64,000 nucleotides of DNA. Origin: Candidatus Pacearchaeota archaeon (lineage in GTDB: Archaea > Nanobdellota > Nanobdellia > Pacearchaeales > GW2011-AR1). The stretch lies in assembly GCA_041659945.1 (NCBI GenBank), contig JBAZXH010000001.1, positions 627,262-691,261 of the forward strand, read 5' to 3'. Numbering within the stretch: position 1 is the first letter of the stretch; each line of letters begins with the position of its first letter. This document shows, one piece after another, positions 1 through 35,814 of the stretch. The notes under the pieces are model-generated. The model saw only the letters and a program-made list of their open reading frames with translations. It was not told where the DNA came from and made no database searches. The position numbers were made by a program, and so were the translations under genes.

Positions 1-857
1 ATTTTTATACTGGCAATCCAGTAAAAGGAGGAGTTAAAAAGGTTGTATGTGATCGTGTTCTGCCAAGTCTAGATGCAGAGGGGAAAAAAGAAATAATTGA
101 AGATTATCTTGCTTTGGCTGTAGGATGCATCAAAGGAGCTGATTATGAAGAAATAGAAGCTATTGCAGATCAGTATGGATTAAATGAATTTTTATTAAAA
201 ACATTAAGAAAAAGAGAACATCATCAGTGGGCAGCTAGGACAGCTGTGAAACTTGGAAGAAAAAAAGATGCTAGAGATCTTTTTTATGCAGCTGGAAATT
301 TTGATTCAGCAGCTGATAATACTGATGATCCTGTTAATAAGGCTACATTTTATCTTAGATCAGCTACTCAAATAGCAGATAGGAGATTTCAGCCAAGTCT
401 ATTTTTTGATCCTAAAAGGTATAATGCTGAAGTTGAGAAGATGCAACAAGCACTTGCTTTAGTTGGAGATAATGGAGCACAATTACAGGATACAACTTTT
501 ATTGGAGCTGCTAGAGGGCTTGTATCTAAACTTGTTGAAAAAGGAGATTTTTCAGAAGCATGCGCATTTATTAGAGATAGTGGTTTACCACGAGATAGGT
601 TTATAGAATTTGTTACAGATGAACATCTTGTAAGGGCAGAGACTGCTGGAGATTATGGTGGTTGTTGTTCTTTAGCAAGACTTCGTGGAGATGAAGCTGC
701 TGCAAGATCATATGCCTTATTGGCAGAACATAATGCTCCAAATTATACTCATCCACCTATAATGCCAACAGGTCTTGCTGATTTTATTTACACTCCTTCT
801 AAAAGTGGAGTACAGGTTGGTGCTGGTGAAGATGGAGATGAAGATATTCCTTTTTAA
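1..857 (+). CDS. hypothetical protein, 5' end outside window
   Basis: The frame is open from nt 3 with no stop until TAA at 855-857. The TTG at 114 in the ORF track is only the first possible start inside a longer frame. No motif recognised. Confidence 0.55.
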   Translation, partial: FYTGNPVKGGVKKVVCDRVLPSLDAEGKKEIIEDYLALAVGCIKGADYEEIEAIADQYGLNEFLLKTLRKREHHQWAARTAVKLGRKKDARDLFYAAGNFDSAADNTDDPVNKATFYLRSATQIADRRFQPSLFFDPKRYNAEVEKMQQALALVGDNGAQLQDTTFIGAARGLVSKLVEKGDFSEACAFIRDSGLPRDRFIEFVTDEHLVRAETAGDYGGCCSLARLRGDEAAARSYALLAEHNAPNYTHPPIMPTGLADFIYTPSKSGVQVGAGEDGDEDIPF

Positions 858-921
858 TTAATTTTTATTTTCAATAAAGTCGAACCGAAGAAAATAAATA
901 GTTCTTTGTATTAGGTTTTTA

Positions 922-1554
922 ATGCCTAAAGTTACTAAAAAGAAAGGTGATTTAAAAAAACTGAAAAAAGTAGAGGTTAGTTTGTCTTCTAAGTCAAATA
1001 AATCAAGCAAAGTTGAAGTTGCTGAAATTAAACGGCCTAGAGAAGAGGAATTTGATGAAGAAGATAATTTAAATAATTTTATTGGTTTTTTTGATCCTAG
1101 ATTACTTAGTGTTGGTAGTGGTGTATTGAGAGGGCCGGTTTTGGATTCGGAAAATAGATCTTTGGAAGGAAGTGTTGGAGGTGTGCAAAATGCTCCTGAA
1201 GCAGCAAATCTGGAAAAGGAAAAACAAGCGAATGTTAATCCTTATGTTACTAATTCTGGAATTGATTATACCATACGGCTAGGTCAAGACTTTACAATGC
1301 AGAATGCAAGAAAAAGACGAAACGATGATATGGATGAAACTGTTTTGACAGCTCGTAGAAAAAGAGAAGAAAGGGCTTTTATTCAACCAGAGGAAAGAGC
1401 TTTGAATGTTGGAGATTTTAGAAGAGAAATGACTCAGCAGGGAGGAAGTATGGGTGCAGATGAATATTCTAATTATGTTGTTGGAGCGGATAAACTACAG
1501 TATGAAAGTGGTCTGCCCTTTGAGCAAAAGGAAGAAAAGAGAAAAAGATTTTGA
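922..1554 (+). CDS. hypothetical Lys/Glu/Arg-rich protein
   Basis: 210-aa ORF with ATG start and a highly charged low-complexity N-terminus (KKKGDLKKLKK). No motif recognised. Confidence 0.5.
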   Translation: MPKVTKKKGDLKKLKKVEVSLSSKSNKSSKVEVAEIKRPREEEFDEEDNLNNFIGFFDPRLLSVGSGVLRGPVLDSENRSLEGSVGGVQNAPEAANLEKEKQANVNPYVTNSGIDYTIRLGQDFTMQNARKRRNDDMDETVLTARRKREERAFIQPEERALNVGDFRREMTQQGGSMGADEYSNYVVGADKLQYESGLPFEQKEEKRKRF

Positions 1555-1578
1555 GTTTTAACGAAGTTTATTAGACTA

Positions 1579-1728
1579 ATTTTGAAATCATACCATAACT
1601 GTTTGTGCTACGCAAAACATCCCTAATTTAAAGCTGTTTAATATATGCTAGAATATTATTACCTAGCTAACTTTTAACCTATAGAAGTTAAATGAGCAGA
1701 GCGAATGATTGTTTATTTATTTTCAATA
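1579..1728 (+). repeat. intergenic repeat family 1, copy A (left arm of an inverted pair)
   Basis: Aligns by hand to the reverse complement of 5074-5207 and partly to rc(28985-29085). Starts 24 nt after the stop of the 922..1554 gene. Confidence 0.75.
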
Positions 1729-1780
1729 CAAAAACATAAATATTTAAACTTAATTTTTTATCTATATACTAGAGGTGTAA

Positions 1781-3673
1781 ATGTCTTATCAATATTTTTA
1801 CGAAGGAGCATATTCTGCATTGGAACCTAAATATGGTGATTTATTTGTTGGTTATAGGTTACCTGCTGGAAGTTTAGGTGCTACTACAAGTGTACAAACT
1901 GCAAATCAGATAAAAGAAGTTAATAATTTATTAAATCAGGGAATGAGAAATATTGAAGTTTCCATGATCAGACCTGATGTTTTGGATATGATTCCTAAAC
2001 AGCATTTAAGAGAAATAAACAGACTCTCTAAATTAACTGGAACTGAAGGAGGAATTTCTTTACATGCTCCGATTATTGATCCATCAGGTTTTACAGAACA
2101 GGGATGGGAAGAGACAAATAGAGAAGCTGTTGAAAGACAGTTTATTGATATGTTAGATAAAGCACATGCATTGAGTCCTAATGGTCCTATGCCCGTAACA
2201 ATTCATGCTTCATCTATTCCAGGAACTGAAACAATTCCATTCGAGGAAAATGGTAAAATGGGTGAAAAAACACAAAAAATGATTGCAGTTAATAGAGAAA
2301 CCGGTCAGCTAATTCCTTTGATTAGGGAAAAAAGATATTATCCTGATAGGCCGGAGGAAAGTTTTGGAAAAATTTATGAACCCGAACAAGAGTTAGAAAT
2401 TGCAAATAGAAGTCATTGGGATAATAAACTTTCACAATTATTATTTTATAAGGATAGGGGAGATGAAATTTTAGACAAAGCTGATAAGTTGGCCCAGGGA
2501 TATGTTAATGAAGCAAAAAAAACTCAACAAATTCTTAGTAGTAATATCGACCCAGAAACCAAACAGCCGTTGACTGATGAACAAAAAAGACAATATGAAG
2601 AACAAATAGTGCAGCTAAAACAGACAGCTCAACTTGCTCCACAGTCTCAGTTACAAAATGCAATGTTGTACTTTGAAAACACTCAGCTAAGTACGAGCAG
2701 TCTTTTTAATGAGGCATATAAACTTGCAGATGAGGAAGGTAGAAAAAGATTAAAAAAAGTTTCTGATGTTTTCAAAAAAGACTTTTCTCAGGCTGTTGAC
2801 AGTAGTGGTCAGCTTAGAGATCCGGTAGCTTTTTCCAATGCTCTTCAGGGGTTAATTCAGAATATGAAATCGGAAACAACTTCCTCTGACCCCAGAGTTC
2901 ATATACCTCAAGTTTACAAACCTGTTGAGGAATTTGTTACAGAAAAAGCATCTCAGACAATTGGAAATACTGCGTTTAAATCTTATAAAAATTATGGTCC
3001 AAATGCTCCGATAATTTCCATTGAAAATCCCCCCTATGGAAGTGCGGTATCAAGAGCTAAGGATGTTGCAAAACTAATTGAAGAATCAAAAAAAGTTTTT
3101 ATTGAAAGAGCTAGAAAAGAGGGAATGAGCCAGGGTGAAGCTCAGAAAGCTGCTGATAGTGTAATTGGTGCTACATGGGATACATCTCACATAGCTATGA
3201 TGAGAAAACAAGGATTTGGTTCTGAACAATTGATTAAGGAAGCTAAGACAATTGCTCCGTTTGTTAAGCATGTTCATCTAAATGATAATTTTGGAAGTAG
3301 TCATACTGATTTGCCTGTTGGAATGGGTAATGTTCCAATTAAAGAGATTATGCAAGAGTTTGATAAAGTAGGATTTAAAGGACGGCGAGTTTTTGAGGGT
3401 GGGAATTTCTTTCAGCATTTTCAACAATCACCTCATAGCTATATGTTAGAAGCTTTTGGTTCTCCAGTTTATTCTACAGCACCAGATATTGGAGGAATGT
3501 TATATTGGAATCAAGGAGTTTTAGGTGGAGGAAATTATTTTTCAGGTATGGGCACTATGCTTCCAGATCAAAATTTTCAGATGTATGGATCAGGATTTTC
3601 AGGAATGCCTACTGAACTTGGAGGGCAAATGCAGCAGAGAGGCTCTAGAATGAGTGGTACTCCGATGGCATAG
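1781..3673 (+). CDS. xylose-isomerase-like TIM-barrel protein with large central insert and Gly/Met/Gln-rich tail
   Basis: C-terminal half has WDTSH...VKHVHLNDNFGSSHTDLPVGMGNVPIKEI...FEGG, typical of the sugar-phosphate isomerase/AP endonuclease 2 TIM-barrel fold. N-terminal half has LHAP and TIHAS strand motifs. About 250 aa of charged helical sequence lies between them. The tail is GGMLYWNQGVLGGGNYFSGMG... Confidence 0.6.
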   Translation: MSYQYFYEGAYSALEPKYGDLFVGYRLPAGSLGATTSVQTANQIKEVNNLLNQGMRNIEVSMIRPDVLDMIPKQHLREINRLSKLTGTEGGISLHAPIIDPSGFTEQGWEETNREAVERQFIDMLDKAHALSPNGPMPVTIHASSIPGTETIPFEENGKMGEKTQKMIAVNRETGQLIPLIREKRYYPDRPEESFGKIYEPEQELEIANRSHWDNKLSQLLFYKDRGDEILDKADKLAQGYVNEAKKTQQILSSNIDPETKQPLTDEQKRQYEEQIVQLKQTAQLAPQSQLQNAMLYFENTQLSTSSLFNEAYKLADEEGRKRLKKVSDVFKKDFSQAVDSSGQLRDPVAFSNALQGLIQNMKSETTSSDPRVHIPQVYKPVEEFVTEKASQTIGNTAFKSYKNYGPNAPIISIENPPYGSAVSRAKDVAKLIEESKKVFIERARKEGMSQGEAQKAADSVIGATWDTSHIAMMRKQGFGSEQLIKEAKTIAPFVKHVHLNDNFGSSHTDLPVGMGNVPIKEIMQEFDKVGFKGRRVFEGGNFFQHFQQSPHSYMLEAFGSPVYSTAPDIGGMLYWNQGVLGGGNYFSGMGTMLPDQNFQMYGSGFSGMPTELGGQMQQRGSRMSGTPMA

Positions 3674-27247: not shown

Positions 27248-28870
27248 ATGACCGATTCAAAACCAGTTTACATATCACCTGAAAATGTTCAGCGAATGCT
27301 TGGACAGGATGCTCAGAGAAATAATATTCTAGCTGCACGAATAGTTGCAGATACTGTGAAAACTACACTTGGGCCTAAAGGCATGGATAAGATGCTTGTT
27401 GATGCTAGCGGAAATGTTGTGATTACAAATGATGGCGTTACAATTCTTGAGGAAATGGAAATTGAACATCCGGCAGCAAAGATGATGGTGGAAATTGCAA
27501 AAACTCAGGAAAATGAAGTTGGTGATGGTACAACAACTGCAGTTATGATTGCAGGAAAATTGCTTGAAAATGCTGAAAAATTACTTGATAAGAAAATTCA
27601 TCCGACCGTTATAACTAAAGGTTATCAGTTGGCTGCTGAAAAGTCAATTGATTTTTTAAATCAAATTGGAACTAGAATCACAACTGATGATAATTTAACT
27701 TTGAGACAAATTGCAATAACATCAATGACCGGAAAGAGTGTTGAAAATGTTAAGGAAAAATTTGCAGATATTATTGTTGACTCTGTTAAACTTATTGAGG
27801 ATATGGGACAGATTGACTTGGATAATATTAAGATAGAAAAAATTAAGGGAGATGGAACAAAAGATACTGAGCTAGTTTCAGGAATTGTTTTGGATGCTGA
27901 AAAACTTAATATTGATATGCCAAAAACTGTTGAAAATGCGAGAATTGCTTTGCTTGATTTTGCACTTGAACTTAGAAATCCGGAAATTGAAACAAAGATA
28001 AGTATTTCCACACCTGAACAGTTACGGGGTTTTGTTGATTCTGAGGAAAAAATGCTAAAAGAAATGATTGAGGTTGTTAAAAAATCCGGAGCAAATGTTG
28101 TTTTTTGTCAAAAGGGAATTGATGATGTTGCACAGTATTATTTAACTAAAGCTAGAATTTATGCTTGTAGAAGAGTTGCCAGAAGTGATATGGAAAAATT
28201 ATCAATGGCTACTGGAGGAAAAATAGTTAGTAATTTAAGTGAGTTAAATAATGAAGACCTGGGAAGTTCTAAGAGTGTTGAAGAAATAAAAAAAGGGGGA
28301 AATGCTATGACTTATGTAAGAGGATGTTTGAATCCTAAAGCAATAACAATAATTGTGCGTGGAGGAAGTGATCATGTGATTGATGAAACAGAAAGAGCTA
28401 TTAGAGACGGTTTAGGTGATGTGAGTGCGGTTTTGAAAGATGGGATGGTTGTTGCTGGTGGGGGGGCTGTTGAAATTGAGCTGGCTAAACGACTAAGAGA
28501 ATTTTCACAAAGTTTGAATGGAAGGGAACAACTTGCTGTGGAAGAATTTGCCAGTGCACTTGAGTGTATTCCAATTACACTTGCAGAAAACGCAGGATTA
28601 GATCCAATTGATATGTTAACTGATTTGAAAGCTCAGCATGATAAGGGAAATAAAAATGTTGGTTTGAATTTATTTACCGGAAAGGTTGAAGATACTTTTG
28701 TTGCAGGTATCATTGAACCGCTGAGAATTAAAACCCAGGCAATTAGCTCATCATCTGAAGTTGCAACAATGATTTTGAGAATCGATGATGTTATTGCTAG
28801 CAATGGCAAGAAAAATGCAAGAGAGAATAAGTTTGGGGGAATGCAAAATCCTATGATGGGGTATGATTAA
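27248..28870 (+). CDS. ths: thermosome subunit (group II chaperonin)
   Basis: [43 protein letters not shown] and a C-terminal GGMQNPMMG tail are classic thermosome/CCT motifs. Confidence 0.95.
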
Positions 28871-29089: not shown

Positions 29090-29581
29090 TTAACATCTAG
29101 ACTCACTTTTTATCTTGCTTATGATGTTTGTGGTTGAGCTGTTTGTTTCTGCTGGAAGAATTGCAATTTTGCCATTATAACTTTCAACTATTTTTCTTTC
29201 ATCCTGATTAATTGTATCTAAATTATAATCTCCGCCTTTGGCATAGACTTCTGGTTTTAATTCTTCTAGGTATTTGGTTGGATGGGCTTCTGAGAAGATG
29301 ATAACTTTGTCAACACATTCTAGAGCTGCAATTAGCTCAGCTCTTTCACTTTCAGAAACTATTGGACGTGAAGGACCTTTAATTTCTCTGATTGAAGAAT
29401 CACTGTTAATTCCAACTATAAGCAAATCTCCGCAGGCCTTTGCTTTTTGCAGATATCTAATGTGCCCTACGTGGAGTATGTCAAAACATCCGTTTGTCCA
29501 AACTACTTTTTTATCTGGATTAGAATTCTTGAAATTTTCAATATCTTTTTTTAGCTGTTCTAGATCTTTTATTTTATTCAT
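29090..29581 (-). CDS. cytidylyltransferase-family nucleotidyltransferase (RfaE domain II / heptose-1-P adenylyltransferase-like)
   Basis: VVWTNGCFDILHVGHIRYLQKAK (HxGH motif) and IVGINSDSSIR. Confidence 0.8.
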   Translation of the reverse strand: MNKIKDLEQLKKDIENFKNSNPDKKVVWTNGCFDILHVGHIRYLQKAKACGDLLIVGINSDSSIREIKGPSRPIVSESERAELIAALECVDKVIIFSEAHPTKYLEELKPEVYAKGGDYNLDTINQDERKIVESYNGKIAILPAETNSSTTNIISKIKSESRC

Positions 29582-29628: not shown

Positions 29629-30459
29629 TTACATTAACCTCGTTTCAAGAAGTTCGAATTTAACTGGAAGATTTGGATTGCCTTCTCTTTCATAGCCTGA
29701 TTGTGCTACAATTTTTGGAGGTTGAAATCTATTTTGTTTTAGAATTTCTTGTAGAACATCAAACTTCCCAAGAGTTGTTGAAAATCCAATTAGTAAATTT
29801 CCATTATCTCCTAGATAGCTTGTGCATTGTTCACCAAATCTTCTTAAATTTTTATAACCTGGATCCCACACTGCTTGATGTAGAAGATCTAACTTTCCCT
29901 GTTCACCCCAATCTCCAAAGGGTATATTCCAAAAAATAGTATTATATCCATTTCCGGGAAGAGTATCAAAAAGATCTGATTCATAGACATCTGAACAATT
30001 GCCTTCTGGATCGTGAAGCAATCTATTAATCCTTGTGTTTCTAACTGCTATTGGATTAATGTCTGCAGCATGAACTGTAAATGAACTTCCAATTGGATGC
30101 TTTTTATTTGGAACTCTCATACTTCTTTTTATAACTTCACAGGTTACAACGCCAGTTCCACAACCCATTTCTAGAAAACCACCAAGTTCTACGTATTGAA
30201 CTCGCTTTGGAACTTCTTTTGCAAAGAAGGCAGTATCCTGAAAATAAGTTGGAGGAAAAACTCCAGGCATTACAACATACTGTATGCCATTTATCCATCC
30301 CATATAGGGCTCTTTTTCTTTTTGACTTTTTGAAAGAACTCTTGCAGTTCCCATCATTAATCTTCTGTAGGTTGCTTCATCAGAGGGCAATGTTGTAAAT
30401 TGTGCTCCTTCGTTTGCCTTTACTCCTAGATATCTTGTGATAACATGTATACTTTTCAT
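29629..30459 (-). CDS. HemK/RsmC-like SAM-dependent N-methyltransferase (operon III)
   Basis: VMPGVFPP, LEMGCGTGVV (motif I) and WNIPFG (an NPPY-type variant). Start set at the ATG at 30459, giving an ATGA overlap with the upstream stop. Confidence 0.65.
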   Translation of the reverse strand: MKSIHVITRYLGVKANEGAQFTTLPSDEATYRRLMMGTARVLSKSQKEKEPYMGWINGIQYVVMPGVFPPTYFQDTAFFAKEVPKRVQYVELGGFLEMGCGTGVVTCEVIKRSMRVPNKKHPIGSSFTVHAADINPIAVRNTRINRLLHDPEGNCSDVYESDLFDTLPGNGYNTIFWNIPFGDWGEQGKLDLLHQAVWDPGYKNLRRFGEQCTSYLGDNGNLLIGFSTTLGKFDVLQEILKQNRFQPPKIVAQSGYEREGNPNLPVKFELLETRLM

Positions 30460-30755
30460 TTTAGTTTTTCTTCTAAACAATTTAATACACGTGACCAGAA
30501 TTCAGGTGTTGCCTTTTCATTTGGGCTATTTTGACCACAGTCTATTAATGGCCATTTATATTCTGAATAAGCTATAATGGGGTGTGTTAGAGAATCATGA
30601 TGATGAGTAGAAGTTGCTAACACTACAGGTAATCCTAGCTGATCAGCTAATTCAGCAACTAAAATTCCTAGAGGTTGATTTGCTTCATCTTTTTCAATTG
30701 CTGTTCTTAGATCAGTATAATAATCTTTTGGAGCAGTAGCTTCGCGGTAGATCAT
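30456..30755 (-). CDS. hypothetical protein, possibly the C-terminal half of a receiver-like fold (operon III)
   Basis: 99 aa. LPVVLATSTHHHD (beta4 plus Thr/Ser-like) and AYSEYKWPL (beta5 Lys-like). Confidence 0.45.
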   Translation of the reverse strand: MIYREATAPKDYYTDLRTAIEKDEANQPLGILVAELADQLGLPVVLATSTHHHDSLTHPIIAYSEYKWPLIDCGQNSPNEKATPEFWSRVLNCLEEKLK

Positions 30756-30772
30756 ACCTAAAGTATTTCTTG

Positions 30773-31216
30773 CTATGGCTGTTGATGCTTCGTTTCCAAG
30801 GGTATCACTATTTTTTTAATTGCTCTAAATGTTGGATTTTCCTCACAATTTCCAGCATTATGTATAAAATATGCTCTTGCAATTTTTCTTAATTCCGGAT
30901 CGAGAGTTATTATTGCTCCTAATTTTTCAAGAGTTTCTAAAACTCTCATTTCTGTTTTGTCTGATCTTTGCATTCTATCAACTAATTCTAATCCTGAAGT
31001 TTTTGTTCCGCTACCAGTTATTTCTGGAAAGAAACAATCAGTAATTACTCCATTAAATCCTGAGGGAGTTCTAGCTAATAGTGCTTCGTGAGCCTGAAGA
31101 TAATCTTGAGCGTGTCTTAGTTGATAACCTCTTCCTTGAAGACATTCAATTGCTGCAGTTGAATAGTCAGTATTGTCCTCAACTAGTAAAATTCTTTTTT
31201 CTGCTTGCTCGGTCAT
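30773..31216 (-). CDS. CheY-like receiver-related protein (operon III)
   Basis: KRILLVEDN (beta1, acidic pair) and NGVITDCFFPE (beta3 Asp). The rest is atypical. Confidence 0.5.
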   Translation of the reverse strand: MTEQAEKRILLVEDNTDYSTAAIECLQGRGYQLRHAQDYLQAHEALLARTPSGFNGVITDCFFPEITGSGTKTSGLELVDRMQRSDKTEMRVLETLEKLGAIITLDPELRKIARAYFIHNAGNCEENPTFRAIKKIVIPLETKHQQP

Positions 31217-32595
31217 TTTCTAGGACCTCCAAATACGCATTGTAAACCAGTATATATACTTGTATTATGATCTTTTCCAATTCCTTGTGAAATTCCAAGT
31301 TGAGCTTCTAGATTATTACGGTGAGCGTAAAAATTTAATCCAACAGTGTCTTTAGATGCAGAAGCATTGTTTGTTGTATTACTTGTTGTAAAATCATGCT
31401 TTCCAAATCCGCTTATTCCTATTTGAGTATTTTTTTCAGGGTGAAACATATATCCAATTTCAGCTCTGATGCATCCACTTTCAGTTCCTTGATTATTTTG
31501 AAGATTTGCATCTAATCCTAGTACAAATCCTTCTTTAGAACGCATTGTTAATGGAACTCTTCCAAGTGTTAGAGCATATGGAAGTACTGTGTTTTCTGAA
31601 TATAATCCCTCATCTGAGGTTGAGTTATTCGTTAACCAACAAAATGGTATGTCTTTTCCTAGTGTAGGATTTTGAGCTAAGATTCCATGAAACTCTACAT
31701 TACTTGTATCTCTTTCTTCATTTCGATCATATCTTGCAAAGATTCTTGTGCCCCACTTTTCTTTTTCTCCAACATGACCATAATTTGCAGCTATACTTTT
31801 TGTTGTTGAATCATCAGCTTCTTGACTTAATCTTAGAGCTAAACCTAGTTGATCTGTTGCAGTTGGTAAATATCTTACTTTTGCTAAGAAGTGATTTGTT
31901 GTTCCTTCACTTGTTCTAACTGTATCAAAACCACCACCAATGTCTAATTTATCATTTTTCCAATCTCCGTAAATTCCTAAATGAGCTGAATCATTGTCTG
32001 TTGTTTCTCTTTCAGTGTATGGAAATACATGGTCTTTTTTATCACCAGCTATCTTTGCAGGTATTACTAATTCTTTTTTTACTAGCTTTGTTTCTTTTGA
32101 GTCTAATTTATCTCCCATTAAAATGAGTGTATAATCATTTTCATTTACAAAATATTCAGCTCCAATACCATTTGCTTCACTAGAATTTGTTAATCCATTT
32201 GTTGTTTTTTCAACGCCGAATAAAGTCAGTTTATCATTTAATCCCGTTACTTTTTTAAGTGGAATTTGAACTCCTGCTTCTAGACAGTTTACATCTGTTC
32301 CATTTTCTCTTCCAGTTGTTTGAATTATTCTTGCAGATTCAAAATATCTTGTCCACATATCATTTGGATCGAAGCTTTTGGGAGCAATTCCAACAGTTGT
32401 TGTTAGCAAGCTTGTTTGATTGCCACCTAAATATTCAGTTCCAACTCTTCCAGTAAATAGCCTTTGAGGTTTGACTTCTTCGATTTTCGCAGGAGAGGTT
32501 ATATCATCTGCAGCACTAATCCCTGTTGTTAATCCTGTTAAAACTACAGCTGCTCCTGCCAATGCTTTTTTTAATGTTGAACGTATGTTTGTCAT
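31213..32595 (-). CDS. secreted protein with beta-barrel-like amphipathic strand periodicity (operon III)
   Basis: Signal peptide KKALAGAAVVLTGLTTGISA|ADD. Many short alternating strands occur (GIGAEYFV, HLGIYGDW, LGLALRLSQ, GTRIFARYD, CIRAEIGYMF, VGLNFYAHR, SIYTGLQCVF). ATGA overlap with the downstream gene. Confidence 0.55.
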   Translation of the reverse strand: MTNIRSTLKKALAGAAVVLTGLTTGISAADDITSPAKIEEVKPQRLFTGRVGTEYLGGNQTSLLTTTVGIAPKSFDPNDMWTRYFESARIIQTTGRENGTDVNCLEAGVQIPLKKVTGLNDKLTLFGVEKTTNGLTNSSEANGIGAEYFVNENDYTLILMGDKLDSKETKLVKKELVIPAKIAGDKKDHVFPYTERETTDNDSAHLGIYGDWKNDKLDIGGGFDTVRTSEGTTNHFLAKVRYLPTATDQLGLALRLSQEADDSTTKSIAANYGHVGEKEKWGTRIFARYDRNEERDTSNVEFHGILAQNPTLGKDIPFCWLTNNSTSDEGLYSENTVLPYALTLGRVPLTMRSKEGFVLGLDANLQNNQGTESGCIRAEIGYMFHPEKNTQIGISGFGKHDFTTSNTTNNASASKDTVGLNFYAHRNNLEAQLGISQGIGKDHNTSIYTGLQCVFGGPRK

Positions 32596-32818
32596 TTTGT
32601 TTTCCTGGGCTGTTAAGCGCGATGCTTCATAACATTGATTTTATATAGTACTTTACCCTGAAATATCCGGTAGTTACTATTAAAGTAATTTTAAATCAAT
32701 TTATTTTTAACCGCTTATTTGTTAATGATTCATTCTCCTTTTAAACCTTTTGATGTGATGTAACTTGATGATAGTAACGACTAGGAAAGTTTATAAGCTG
32801 GACTTTTTGTAAGATAAA

Positions 32819-33808
32819 ATGGAAGATAATATTGTTATTGAGCTGACGTTAGATTGTGATAAGTTTTGCAGGCATTGTTTTCGTAGTTGTGGTATGACTC
32901 GAAAGCATGAAGAATCTGAAATGGAATTTCCAACTCTTACTCGGATATTGGATGAGGTTATTTGGACAAATGAACATCGGAATTTTAGAAAGATTAAAAG
33001 TGCTAATCTAACTGGTGGAGAACCAATTATTTGGGGCAGGAAAGAACATACAATTGGTGACGGAGTTAGAGCTGTTTTTAAAAGAGGGTTAAAACCAAGA
33101 ATTATAACCAGTAGTACTTGTCCGGGCGATAAGTTGTTTGATAGATATGTGAGTGGAGTTGAAAGTTTAGAAGGAGTTGGAGTGTTTGATGTTTTTCATA
33201 GTTTTAATCTATACATGATTGGTGAAGGTAATGAAACAGATAAAGGAAGAAGAATTGAAGATCGTTTAACTTTTACTATTCCTTTGTTTGATAATCTTTT
33301 TGGAGAAGATAGGCATTTGGGATTTCTTGGAGTTTATGATGCAAAAAATAGAGAAGAAACTTTAACTAGATTTCATGAGTTTATGAAAGGACTTGGTTTG
33401 AAAATGGTTAAAAGTCAGAGCACTCGAGATTGGGAAAAAAAGTCAGAGCAAGGGAAGAAAGTATGGTTTATTTATAGAGATGGTTCAAGAACTGCTGATG
33501 GAGAATTTTATCCAATAAAAAGTTGTGCGGGTCATGCAAAGGCAAATAATTTACAACCTGTTGCAATAAAAACACAATGTTATGTTTTAGATGGTGTTGG
33601 AATAAGACCAACAGTTGCTTGGGATGGGAAAGTTTATCCGTGTTGGGAAGAACATTTTCCAAGTACAAGACCACTTGGAAATCTTCACCAAGAACATTTA
33701 GCTACAATTTTGGGAAGAGAAAGAGCTTATCTTGAAGATTTAAGAGAACGGATAAAAAGAGGCTATGATAAGGGTACAGATATTTGTAAATTTTGTACAG
33801 AAAAATAG
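32819..33808 (+). CDS. radical SAM enzyme with Cys-rich C-terminus
   Basis: CDKFCRHC is the CX3CX2C motif at residues 13-20. NLTGGEP is a GGE-type SAM motif. C-terminal cysteines (CYVLDG...YPCW...ICKFC) are SPASM/twitch-like. Confidence 0.7.
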   Translation: MEDNIVIELTLDCDKFCRHCFRSCGMTRKHEESEMEFPTLTRILDEVIWTNEHRNFRKIKSANLTGGEPIIWGRKEHTIGDGVRAVFKRGLKPRIITSSTCPGDKLFDRYVSGVESLEGVGVFDVFHSFNLYMIGEGNETDKGRRIEDRLTFTIPLFDNLFGEDRHLGFLGVYDAKNREETLTRFHEFMKGLGLKMVKSQSTRDWEKKSEQGKKVWFIYRDGSRTADGEFYPIKSCAGHAKANNLQPVAIKTQCYVLDGVGIRPTVAWDGKVYPCWEEHFPSTRPLGNLHQEHLATILGRERAYLEDLRERIKRGYDKGTDICKFCTEK

Positions 33809-34398: not shown

Positions 34399-34644
34399 CT
34401 AATCTTTATTATTTAGATAACTTTCAGCAGCATGTTTAGAACCATAGAAGAATAGCACTTGTTTTGGAGTTGTGATACTTTTATCTATTTCTTCTGCAAC
34501 AATTTCTGCGTGATTTCTTCCCCAAGATTGTTCTGCCTGTGATATCTCACACCTAGAAATTAAGTATCCACTAACATTGCTAAAAATTAGGCTAAATGTT
34601 GCTAGGCAAATAAGAGCCAATAGGTTTTCCTGTGATGCTTTCAT
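34399..34644 (-). CDS. small N-terminally anchored hypothetical protein
   Basis: 81 aa with an N-terminal hydrophobic segment (LLALICLATFSLIF). Confidence 0.4.
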   Translation of the reverse strand: MKASQENLLALICLATFSLIFSNVSGYLISRCEISQAEQSWGRNHAEIVAEEIDKSITTPKQVLFFYGSKHAAESYLNNKD

Positions 34645-34704
34645 TAACTTTTCTTATATTAAGGGTTTATAAGTTTTTTCTTAGAATCAAGATGTATAAA
34701 CATA

Positions 34705-35814
34705 TTATACAGTTATTCCCTCAGTTCTTAATTCTAATGCTAGCTCTCTTACTTTTAGTCTAGCTCTCATATCAACCTTACCTGCAACATCTAACTGGGC
34801 TTTTATAATTTGATCAAATACAGGTTTTGGTTCTGGAAGGCACCTAAAAACTTGAATAACATAACCCCATTCATCTTCATCAGATGCACAATATCTCAAT
34901 CTTTCCCCCAATGCTTCATGAACATAGGGTGATGAACCTAGATATTTAGCAACCAATGGATCTGCTAATCTTTTTTCATAGTCATTATCTTTTTCTGAAG
35001 GAAATCTAAGATCACAATCATCATCTCTTGAAATTGCAACATTAACGTAGGGAGCTACAAGTTTTTCGATATCTGTTTCAGTTATACTGGCTAATTGTTT
35101 AGATTCTTCAAGTTTTCTAAGAAAAGCCAAATATATGTCAACTGCTCCATCTGAAAGAAGTATTAAGTCTGGATGCAAGTTTAATTCTCCTGAAGTTATT
35201 GTTGCATTTCTATAGAGAATATCAAAACCCTTTCTAAAGAATTTTGGATCTATCTCATCAAAATGATTAGCTAGTATGTCTTCAACAGTTGCATAAGAGC
35301 TAATATCTCCGAAGTATGGCTTTAAATCTGGTATTGTTTCCCAAAGAGTTAGATTATGCAATCTTTTTATAAATTCAGTGGTTAAACACGGACTAAACCT
35401 TGAATCTCTAGTTACCATTTGTTGTCGTAAAAGTTTGTGGCCGTATTTTGACCCTATCTCATTTCTTTTTGATTTTGGAGAGAGAACTGCTAAATTAATG
35501 CTAATGTCAAAAAGTTCTTGTATTTCTTCTGGCGAGAATGTTTTGTTTGCTCGGTTTGTTCTTATTGTTGTATCATTTGGAGTATCTGGGTATCCATCAA
35601 GTTGCCCAAGAATATGCCAGAATCTTCCATCTTTTATGTCATCTAATAAAGCTGCAAGACAATCTTGTGCAATACCTCCTTCTTGTATTGATCTAAGCAT
35701 ATGTTGATGAGACCCAATAAATGCATCTGCCTGCTGAACCACTAATTCCTGAGAAGATAATAAATCTGCAGGCGTTGAATCGGGATATAAATTTAATCTA
35801 AATTGTTCCATCAA
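34705..35814 (-). CDS. hypothetical protein
   Basis: 369-aa ORF with no motif recognised. Confidence 0.5.
   Translation of the reverse strand: MMEQFRLNLYPDSTPADLLSSQELVVQQADAFIGSHQHMLRSIQEGGIAQDCLAALLDDIKDGRFWHILGQLDGYPDTPNDTTIRTNRANKTFSPEEIQELFDISINLAVLSPKSKRNEIGSKYGHKLLRQQMVTRDSRFSPCLTTEFIKRLHNLTLWETIPDLKPYFGDISSYATVEDILANHFDEIDPKFFRKGFDILYRNATITSGELNLHPDLILLSDGAVDIYLAFLRKLEESKQLASITETDIEKLVAPYVNVAISRDDDCDLRFPSEKDNDYEKRLADPLVAKYLGSSPYVHEALGERLRYCASDEDEWGYVIQVFRCLPEPKPVFDQIIKAQLDVAGKVDMRARLKVRELALELRTEGITV

Follow-up and report, generated by a model that had tools for sequence, protein, structure and literature searches.

Large transmembrane beta-barrels, of the size of the protein described here, are regarded as a hallmark of the outer membranes of bacteria, mitochondria and plastids. 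The characterized outer-membrane protein of the archaeon Ignicoccus is, to our knowledge, not a beta-barrel. An outer membrane does have precedents among archaea, in Ignicoccus and the Altiarchaeales with their two membranes (PMC6349945), which are lineages different from the one studied here, and a PopA-like porin that may be a distant relative has been mentioned in passing for Altiarchaeales (PMC12228718). Reviews and imaging papers either treat DPANN archaea and ultrasmall cells as having no outer membrane or are silent on the subject (PMC6349945, PMC7906910), and a search of the full-text literature for barrels resembling outer-membrane proteins (OMPs) in Pacearchaeota or DPANN found no description. 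Here, we report the analysis of a 64,000-nt stretch of the genome of a Candidatus Pacearchaeota archaeon, a member of DPANN (hereafter the window, to whose full length all coordinates refer). The window encodes a 460-residue protein with a predicted Sec signal peptide that very probably folds, as judged from structure prediction, as a large antiparallel barrel of the outer-membrane type. Its gene opens a minus-strand operon that continues with a receiver-like gene and a methyltransferase gene, and a gene for a radical S-adenosylmethionine (SAM)/SPASM enzyme diverges from it (Table 1). A first reading made from the letters alone (the sequence-only reading) had seen in these genes a self-contained accessory system; the interest of the locus rests instead on the barrel and its family.

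The window protein shares with the bacterial 22-strand TonB-dependent transporters (BtuB, Cir, FepA and PirA) and the 18-strand OprD/Occ channels a Sec signal, an antiparallel meander of approximately 20–22 strands and a dyad alternation of residues. It differs from the TonB-dependent transporters in having neither a plug domain nor a TonB box, and its identity to the bacterial barrels matched is at most approximately 11%. The C-terminal aromatic residue of bacterial outer-membrane barrels is shared by most members of the family of the window protein, but not by the window protein itself. A further difference from the bacterial barrels is that this family is encoded in DPANN archaea, for which no outer membrane has been described.

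The N-terminus of the protein, MTNIRSTLKK-ALAGAAVVLTGLTTGISA followed by ADD, is a predicted Sec signal peptide by a sequence heuristic. A word-index homology search with the whole protein retrieved nothing but the protein itself and so missed its family entirely; an exhaustive HMMER search alone revealed it, with 68 relatives at E ≤ 1e-3 among 1.84 billion representatives. Three of these (P0008–P0010) are full-length relatives with 33–34% identity, and the others are mostly approximately 330–500 residues long and match residues ~195–455. The finding of these relatives made a confident structure model possible. AlphaFold2 run on the single sequence gave a meaningless model, with a predicted local distance difference test (pLDDT) score of 30. 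With an alignment of 60 sequences, in contrast, all five models had a pLDDT of 87.6–90, the best of them reaching 90 with a predicted template modeling (pTM) score of 0.84. In this model a helix at residues 2–23 and a disordered linker are followed by 21 long strand elements (DSSP), one of which spans 24 residues, arranged in hairpins over residues 48–455, with a long conserved loop at residues 309–355 that holds short helices. Most strands show a dyad hydrophobic/polar alternation, both in the window protein and in the family average.

Comparison of the model with the PDB by Foldseek gave 304 matches at E ≤ 1e-3, and all 50 among the matches listed were bacterial outer-membrane barrels: the TonB-dependent transporters BtuB, Cir, PirA, FepA and PfeA, as well as OccK/OprD, BamA, OmpG, MtrB, PelB and FimD. 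The best of these had E-values of 5e-8 to 1e-6 and a probability of 1.0. The sequence-only reading had pointed to a signal peptide and to a resemblance to a bacterial outer-membrane barrel in an archaeon. Both observations have held up, the former in the sequence, in the N-terminal helix of the model and in the relatives, and the latter in the model and its matches, within a genome that is unmistakably archaeal; the predicted structure is a barrel-type meander and not a soluble fold.

Several properties recur across the 60 aligned members of the family, on which the counts that follow are based. A signal-like N-terminus, with a basic n-region and then a hydrophobic h-region, is present in 56/60. 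The C-terminal residue is F, W or Y in 37 members (e.g., ...LQVQF, ...YIKTF and ...LKWSW). In 21 others, the window protein among them, a short basic tail comes after an aromatic residue. Conserved residues include R50, E54, R89, R284 and R352, together with the motif AQNPT in the long loop, and the conserved in-strand Arg and Glu lie on the polar faces of the strands. The family profile had no real match to PDB sequences, Pfam or NCBIfam, and the window protein itself matched none of the three; scattered weak matches of a few members were to the Autotransporter, OMP_b-brl, Porin_4, MtrB_PioB, SlpA_C and YaiO models.

We considered whether this might be a protein of the surface, S-layer or adhesin type, rich in beta structure, whose long beta-meander AlphaFold had closed into a barrel. 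The failure of the single-sequence model and the lack of any match of the window protein to a curated OMP family would agree with this, as would several N-terminal strands that are not clearly amphipathic. S-layers are also expected in archaea and have been shown for a Micrarchaeota culture (bioRxiv 10.1101/2021.04.28.441871). However, the models made with homologs are uniformly confident, no soluble beta protein stands among the structural matches listed, the dyad pattern and the C-terminal aromatic are family-wide, and the few members that match Autotransporter, OMP_b-brl, Porin_4 and MtrB_PioB do so independently, if weakly. Based on these observations, a non-barrel fold appears quite improbable.

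The barrel family appears confined to Pacearchaeota- and Nanoarchaeia-type archaea, as far as sampled. Members with named sources belong to Ca. Pacearchaeota (the metagenome-assembled genome of the window, and MFA7708384.1 from JBAYNB010000086) and to Ca. Nanoarchaeia (HLC73933.1), and a locus search with a reduced family alignment gave one genome locus. Every barrel context that was examined was archaeal, and the long contigs carry genes for TFIIB, S8e, S24e, S27e, S17e, LSM, Spt4, Rpb7 and tRNA-intron endonuclease. IMG/VR viral contigs scanned for the barrel and receiver-fusion families contained no members of either.

The window cluster also appears to be native to its genome. It is flanked by ordinary archaeal housekeeping genes, encoding a thermosome subunit (27248–28870), a cytidylyltransferase-family protein, a GATase, exonuclease III and diphthamide synthase, and the window sequence recurs unchanged in two assemblies (L001 from ENA and L002 from Logan), including the same run of seven A residues described below. 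For the genes of the cluster, GC content, GC3 and the share of Lys/Ile/Asn all lie within approximately one standard deviation of the mean of 61 long window open reading frames (ORFs). As this composition is native, there is no sign of recent import or chimerism, and recent horizontal transfer of the cluster was rejected on this test. The fold itself is typical of bacteria, which is what would be expected if the cluster were bacterial DNA acquired by recent transfer, assembly chimerism or binning contamination. Set against this are the archaeal genes on the same contig, the two identical assemblies, the native composition, the archaeal contexts of seven other family loci and the outcome of the exhaustive search, which gave no relative traceable to a bacterium. 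We regard a bacterial origin of this kind as hardly credible.

One further gene was observed beside a barrel gene in a Pacearchaeota contig (L009 7279–8034, also L010), where a 251-residue ORF and the barrel gene P0076 overlap at the start of the latter. The product of this ORF has a lipobox-like LVSGC signal and the C-terminus ...SAGWQF, with no Pfam or NCBIfam match, and by its sequence resembles a second partner, smaller and either OMP-like or a lipoprotein.

To place the barrel in its genomic setting, gene neighborhoods were compared at seven other distinct barrel loci, ten other receiver-fusion loci (see below) and the loci of one relative each of the radical SAM and methyltransferase genes. 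At five of the seven barrel loci (L006, L008, L009, L011 and L014/15), a conserved block comes before the barrel gene. It comprises a Hanks-type Ser/Thr kinase gene (580–707 codons) and a gene for a protein of approximately 295–316 residues with an N-terminal AbrB/SpoVT (Pfam MazE_antitoxin) domain, the latter gene lying on the strand opposite to the barrel gene and diverging from it. The three kinase sequences that were read (L006, L008 and L009) have a hydrophobic segment that is probably membrane-spanning. An AbrB-like ORF of approximately 50 residues is also in the block, as confirmed in L008, L009 and L019. In L006, a second AbrB-domain paralog lies on the opposite side of the barrel gene. 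The AbrB-domain proteins had been considered as PhoU-type regulators, a candidate assignment that found no support in NCBIfam or Pfam.

The slot downstream of this block, which recurs in Pacearchaeota-like contigs, varies, being occupied by a barrel gene, a receiver-fusion gene or other genes. In L019, where the block shares with that of L009 an identity of 40% in the kinase, 59% in the AbrB-domain protein and 60% in the small ORF, a receiver-fusion gene fills the slot of the barrel. The genes after it are one of 171 codons and then one for another receiver, which scores weakly (28 bits). A receiver match of 24.8 bits, likewise weak, is found two genes downstream of the barrel in L014/15. The barrel and receiver families thus meet directly in the window, where their genes overlap by ATGA, and share the same slot beside a common block, and they are weakly linked on these grounds. 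A signalling link of the barrel more generally, through the kinase, the AbrB-domain protein or the receiver, is in our view plausible but falls somewhat short of probable.

The receiver-like gene of the window deserves separate description, as it had been taken for two genes. The coordinates, strands, ATGA overlaps, 17-nt gap and 223-bp divergent region that the sequence-only reading gave for the locus are all present in the sequence, as are the four chained minus-strand ORFs; however, these represent three genes, and the 99-residue protein does not stand as the product of a gene of its own. By three-frame translation and comparison with relatives it is the C-terminal half of the receiver-like protein, whose N-terminal part is the 147-residue ORF. 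The 99-residue frame has no stop in the 20 codons that precede its own ATG, from 30815 on, and the two frames join at an A7 homopolymer (...GCA ATT AAA AAA ATA GTG...), where one added A (or a -1 shift) would give AIKKNSDTLGNEASTAIARNTLGMIYRE and a continuous ORF of ~253 residues. Two relatives, P0004 (293 residues) and P0005 (352 residues), which were retrieved with the three downstream window proteins concatenated as the query, are colinear with both ORFs and 43–46% identical to the reconstructed protein, and eight further members (L016–L023) came from a metagenome scan. All ten relatives are single ORFs, so the split in the window is, as judged from these alignments, the derived state of one gene.

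RNA folding downstream of the A7 run is no more stable than in shuffled sequence (z = +0.97). Programmed -1 frameshifting was rejected for this lack of stable downstream structure, and a homopolymer frameshift mutation is the simplest reading, to which transcriptional slippage or a population variant would be the alternative. The window holds 83 A/T runs of 7–8 nt in its 64 kb (74 of length 7 and nine of length 8), and with so many such runs other genes may also have been hit by homopolymer frameshifts.

The likeness of this protein to CheY-type receivers is partial. With these receivers (PF00072), the family shares the beta1-alpha1-beta2-alpha2-beta3-alpha3 segment, the acidic pair and the phospho-acceptor position; it differs in its sub-threshold score, in a remainder that does not align and in having no histidine kinase nearby. 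The Pfam Response_reg model scored 22.2 bits with the 147-residue ORF and 20.8 bits with the reconstructed protein, below the cut-off of 30.2. An hhalign comparison with CheY gave a probability of 87%, limited to beta1–alpha3, and the receiver-fusion profile matched 164 PDB receiver chains (best E-value 6e-7), nearly all within its first ~75 positions. Residues E13, D14 and D60, which align with D12, D13 and the phospho-acceptor D57 of CheY, are invariant in nine members. T202/S203 and K235, also invariant, are candidates for the Thr/Ser of beta4 and the Lys of beta5, outside the part that aligns with receivers. The rest of the protein consists of a variable insert of approximately 70 residues (absent from L021 and L023) and a conserved C-terminal half with the motifs NQPLG(I/L)L, TSTxHH(D/N) and K..PEFW, which matches nothing known. 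No histidine kinase (HisKA/HATPase) was found in the 21 kb surrounding the receiver-like gene, or in L003–L005 and L016–L023 as annotated. The earlier description of the 147-residue protein as CheY-like therefore applies to its first ~75 residues, which match receivers; the Pfam score and the remainder of the protein do not bear it out.

Other features were noted among the relatives of the receiver-like gene. P0005 (L004 826–1884), alone among the members, has an extra, Cys-rich N-terminal extension of ~100 residues (residues 1–100; CGHNC...CLKGC...). The 7.8-kb contig of P0004 (L003) is full of toxin-antitoxin genes (PemK and two PIN/VapB pairs) and has a phage-type integrase, which suggests that some receiver-fusion members sit in mobile or defense-island-like regions. 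Other members adjoin genes for a transketolase, a helicase or a TrmB-family regulator. L021 also contains (18–3554) an ORF of 1178 residues for a protein of the phosphoenolpyruvate (PEP)-utilizing type, similar to pyruvate phosphate dikinase or PEP synthase, with an apparent intein-like interruption in its translation (…GGMTCVAGDSKILTEKGF…).

The explanation that we consider best, and which we place just on the probable side, is that the protein is a Sec-exported barrel channel in an outer lipid layer that is tied to phospho-signalling. In this explanation, the 460-residue protein would be exported by Sec and then seated beyond the cytoplasmic membrane of the archaeon, in a lipid layer where it would act as a passive channel. 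The lipid layer could be the own outer envelope of the archaeon or a host membrane at a contact site. Arg and Glu at conserved positions (R50, E54, R89, R284 and R352) would line the lumen, and the conserved long loop with its AQNPT motif would form a constriction. Production or use of the barrel may be coupled to signalling of the Ser/Thr-kinase, AbrB-domain and receiver type; in this genome the coupling would be translational, to the diverged receiver-like gene, instead of to a kinase/AbrB block. Taken by itself, the assignment of the barrel as a membrane channel is one towards which we lean slightly. The fuller proposal, that Pacearchaeota and related Nanoarchaeia have lineage-specific, genuine transmembrane barrel porins with a bacterial-style signal peptide and a C-terminal aromatic signal, and with a genetic wiring that joins them to a membrane Ser/Thr kinase, to an AbrB-type protein and to divergent receivers, we put forward tentatively, as less probable than its contrary.

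A number of observations weigh against the channel and its signalling tie. We know of no description of an outer membrane in Pacearchaeota. Closure of the barrel, the exact number of its strands and a hydrophobic belt are presumptive. The TM-scores of the Foldseek matches are only 0.3–0.46, with identities of at most approximately 11%, and for this reason the likeness is generic, at the level of the fold class, and singles out no particular family. The alternation of hydrophobic and polar residues is strongest at residues 203–213 and 356–455 and weaker in the N-terminal strands at 88–200. The C-terminus of the window protein (...LQCVFGGPRK) is not aromatic and has a five-residue basic tail after the last aromatic residue. 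On the signalling side, there is no kinase or AbrB-domain homolog in the 64-kb window, the receiver-like gene may be non-functional because it is frameshifted, and the signalling link is neighborhood evidence from a handful of contigs and not a statistical survey.

An explanation that departs from ours solely in the recipient membrane treats the barrel as an offensive or contact-site factor put into a host membrane as a nutrient conduit, possibly that of a Gram-negative host through that host's machinery for beta-barrel assembly (BAM) and the C-terminal aromatic signal. Cultivated DPANN archaea are ectosymbionts with small genomes that need direct contact with a host (PMC11291902); Pacearchaeota 16S signals correlate with bacterial communities (PMC6349945); and ultrasmall groundwater cells without an outer membrane have been imaged attached to hosts of the Gram-negative type (PMC7906910). 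The C-terminal aromatic of the family (37/60) is also like the beta-signals of bacterial OMPs. However, the 21 kb around the gene encode no secretion or injection apparatus, BAM works on the side of the periplasm, where a protein coming from outside would first need to arrive, and the window protein has its basic tail after the aromatic residue. We consider delivery into a host membrane unlikely.

The best explanation, a barrel channel tied to phospho-signalling, does not involve the two enzymes encoded beside the barrel gene. The product of the third gene of the operon (276 residues) is a predicted class-I SAM-dependent, N-directed methyltransferase of the MTS type. Its motifs VMPGVFPP, GCGTG (motif I) and NIPF (motif IV), which had been recognized from the letters, are present, and it passed the Pfam MTS model (PF05175) with 32.5 bits against a cut-off of 23. 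The NCBIfam models of the HemK type failed (TIGR03534, 28.4 against 199; TIGR00537, 34 against 87; TIGR00536, 14.4 against 115), as did every curated HemK, PrmC, Mtq2 and RsmC model. When a three-member profile was compared with the PDB, the first match was MJ0882 (1dus; E-value 1e-15), followed by the aminoglycoside N-methyltransferase GenN, RlmG, RsmC and HemK. The enzyme shares with this family (MJ0882, the RsmC/RlmG m2G rRNA methyltransferases, GenN and HemK/PrmC) the class-I SAM fold, GxGxG, a motif IV of the (D/N)PP(Y/F) type and the N-terminal "PGVF" element. From HemK/PrmC and RsmC it differs in having NIPF in place of NPPY or NPPF and in failing their curated models. The label HemK-like, which the sequence-only reading had given it, is thus correct at the level of the superfamily, but closer in the enzyme is of the MTS type nearest to MJ0882, GenN, RlmG and RsmC, and it has no NPPY.

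Only two relatives of the methyltransferase were found (35–36% identity), and both are fusions: P0006 joins two methyltransferase units (475 residues), and P0007 (L033 4410–6605) joins serine hydroxymethyltransferase to the methyltransferase (731 residues). As the methyltransferase gene is coupled downstream of the receiver-like gene, it is probably co-transcribed with the genes upstream of it, in a link to the barrel that is specific to this genome. A 163-residue ORF of the cytidylyltransferase family (29090–29581, minus strand) begins 47 nt downstream on the same strand and might belong to the same transcription unit. Its score of 185.1 bits is barely above the cut-off (181.5) of the NCBIfam model for RfaE domain II, the adenylyltransferase that forms ADP-heptose, an enzyme type associated with lipopolysaccharide and S-layer glycans.

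The divergent gene encodes, as had been proposed, a radical SAM protein with a CX3CX2C motif near the N-terminus (C13-x3-C17-x2-C20) and a Cys-rich C-terminus. Pfam SPASM was passed (29.1 bits against 21.5) and the Radical_SAM core was below its cut-off (16 against 29.5); the sole PDB match was to the twitch domain of BtrN (E-value 7e-4). The protein shares CX3CX2C and a Cys-rich auxiliary-cluster domain with the SPASM/twitch enzymes (BtrN, anSME and the peptide maturases) and differs from them in its short length (329 residues), its sub-threshold core and the lack of an adjacent precursor peptide. The best NCBIfam maturase score was 27 bits against cut-offs of 180–380, and so no maturase assignment was made. 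Its one relative among 5.8 billion proteins, P0003 (51% identity), lies in an unrelated context of ProRS, eIF-2B, proteasome and aCPSF1 genes, and the radical SAM/SPASM gene of the window is most likely merely a neighbor of the operon. Next to P0003 (JGI 3300072015), a 47-residue DUF5679 gene is found upstream and a DUF424 gene downstream; the small DUF5679 protein, which has no equivalent in the window, is a possible substrate candidate.

These data bear on the proposal that the five genes named by the sequence-only reading form one accessory system, in which the radical SAM enzyme and the methyltransferase would modify a substrate (a peptide or the barrel), the barrel would be the exporter or the product, and the receiver would regulate. 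The genes are adjacent, those on the minus strand are translationally coupled, as their ATGA overlaps indicate, with the radical SAM gene diverging from them, and SPASM enzymes are often peptide maturases, as the list of NCBIfam matches illustrates. On another archaeal contig as well (L011 10419–13211), two methyltransferase genes, with one for a B12-binding radical SAM enzyme between them, come after a barrel gene. However, BLAST detects no similarity of the L011 enzymes to those of the window, and they were rejected as relatives. The combination of window genes is conserved at none of the loci compared: the seven other barrel loci have no relatives of the receiver-fusion, methyltransferase or radical SAM genes, the ten other receiver-fusion loci have none of the barrel, methyltransferase or radical SAM genes, and the context of the methyltransferase P0007 has neither barrel nor receiver. 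In addition, the sole radical SAM relative sits among housekeeping genes, and the methyltransferase relatives are fused to other enzymes. The divergent intergenic region, where a short gene for a substrate peptide had been suggested, holds no ORF of at least 20 residues in the ORF listing, and hence no precursor-peptide ORF. With no conserved synteny and no small ORF, the accessory system is unsupported, and we consider it very improbable. The operon is real in this genome but is not supported as a conserved system, and a functional tie of the barrel to the methyltransferase or the radical SAM enzyme is unlikely at best. The five-gene accessory system should not be propagated.

Table 1. Positions of the features of the barrel locus within the window.
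Feature	Position	Strand	Basis or remark
Barrel-like gene, 460 aa	31213–32595	minus	ORF
Predicted signal peptide, residues 1–28, MTNIRSTLKKALAGAAVVLTGLTTGISA then ADD	32512–32595	minus	cleavage site placed by the AxA rule
Receiver-like gene, ~253 aa if read through	30456–31216	minus	three-frame translation, alignment to single-ORF relatives
147-aa ORF (receiver-like, N-terminal part)	30773–31216	minus	ORF
99-aa ORF (receiver-like, C-terminal half)	30456–30755	minus	ORF
A7 homopolymer, junction of the two frames	30811–30817	minus	...GCA ATT AAA AAA ATA GTG...
Methyltransferase gene, 276 aa from ATG 30459	29629–30459	minus	ORF; longest frame starts at TTG 30480
ATGA overlaps between minus-strand genes	31213–31216 and 30456–30459	minus	sequence
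Divergent intergenic region, 223 bp, between barrel and radical SAM genes	32596–32818	no strand	sequence
TATA-like box TATATAAA, candidate promoter element	32640–32647	minus	~45 nt upstream of barrel ATG
TATA-like box TTTATAA, candidate promoter element	32790–32796	plus-strand gene	~25 nt upstream of radical SAM ATG
Radical SAM/SPASM gene, 329 aa	32819–33808	plus	ORF

Within the divergent region, the two TATA-like boxes are, from the archaeal TATA consensus, candidate promoters, one for each of the divergent genes. A scan for promoters and terminators of the bacterial type gave the same counts as shuffled sequence, and this type of scan is unsuited to archaea. The 17-nt gap in the sequence between the 147- and 99-residue ORFs lies within the receiver-like gene as reconstructed. 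Beyond the radical SAM gene, two consecutive minus-strand ORFs of 81 residues (with a hydrophobic N-terminus) and 368 residues (34399–35814) match nothing in Pfam or NCBIfam, and the 368-residue ORF, like the cluster genes, is lower in Lys/Ile/Asn than the housekeeping genes that immediately flank it.

The class of fold described here is known; what is new, and apparently undescribed, is a lineage-specific DPANN family that has no curated annotation, together with its kinase/AbrB wiring. A confidently modeled, signal-bearing barrel family in DPANN raises a testable question, namely which lipid layer holds the barrels, and the recurrent arrangement of kinase, AbrB-domain protein and barrel offers an entry point to their regulation. 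If the fuller proposal of wired, genuine porins is correct, these archaea would either be diderm, with OMP channels of their own, or would plant porins in the membrane of a host in order to feed, and either of the two would be new to archaeal cell biology and to DPANN symbiosis. Either answer would bear on how these uncultivated, ultra-small symbionts take up nutrients.

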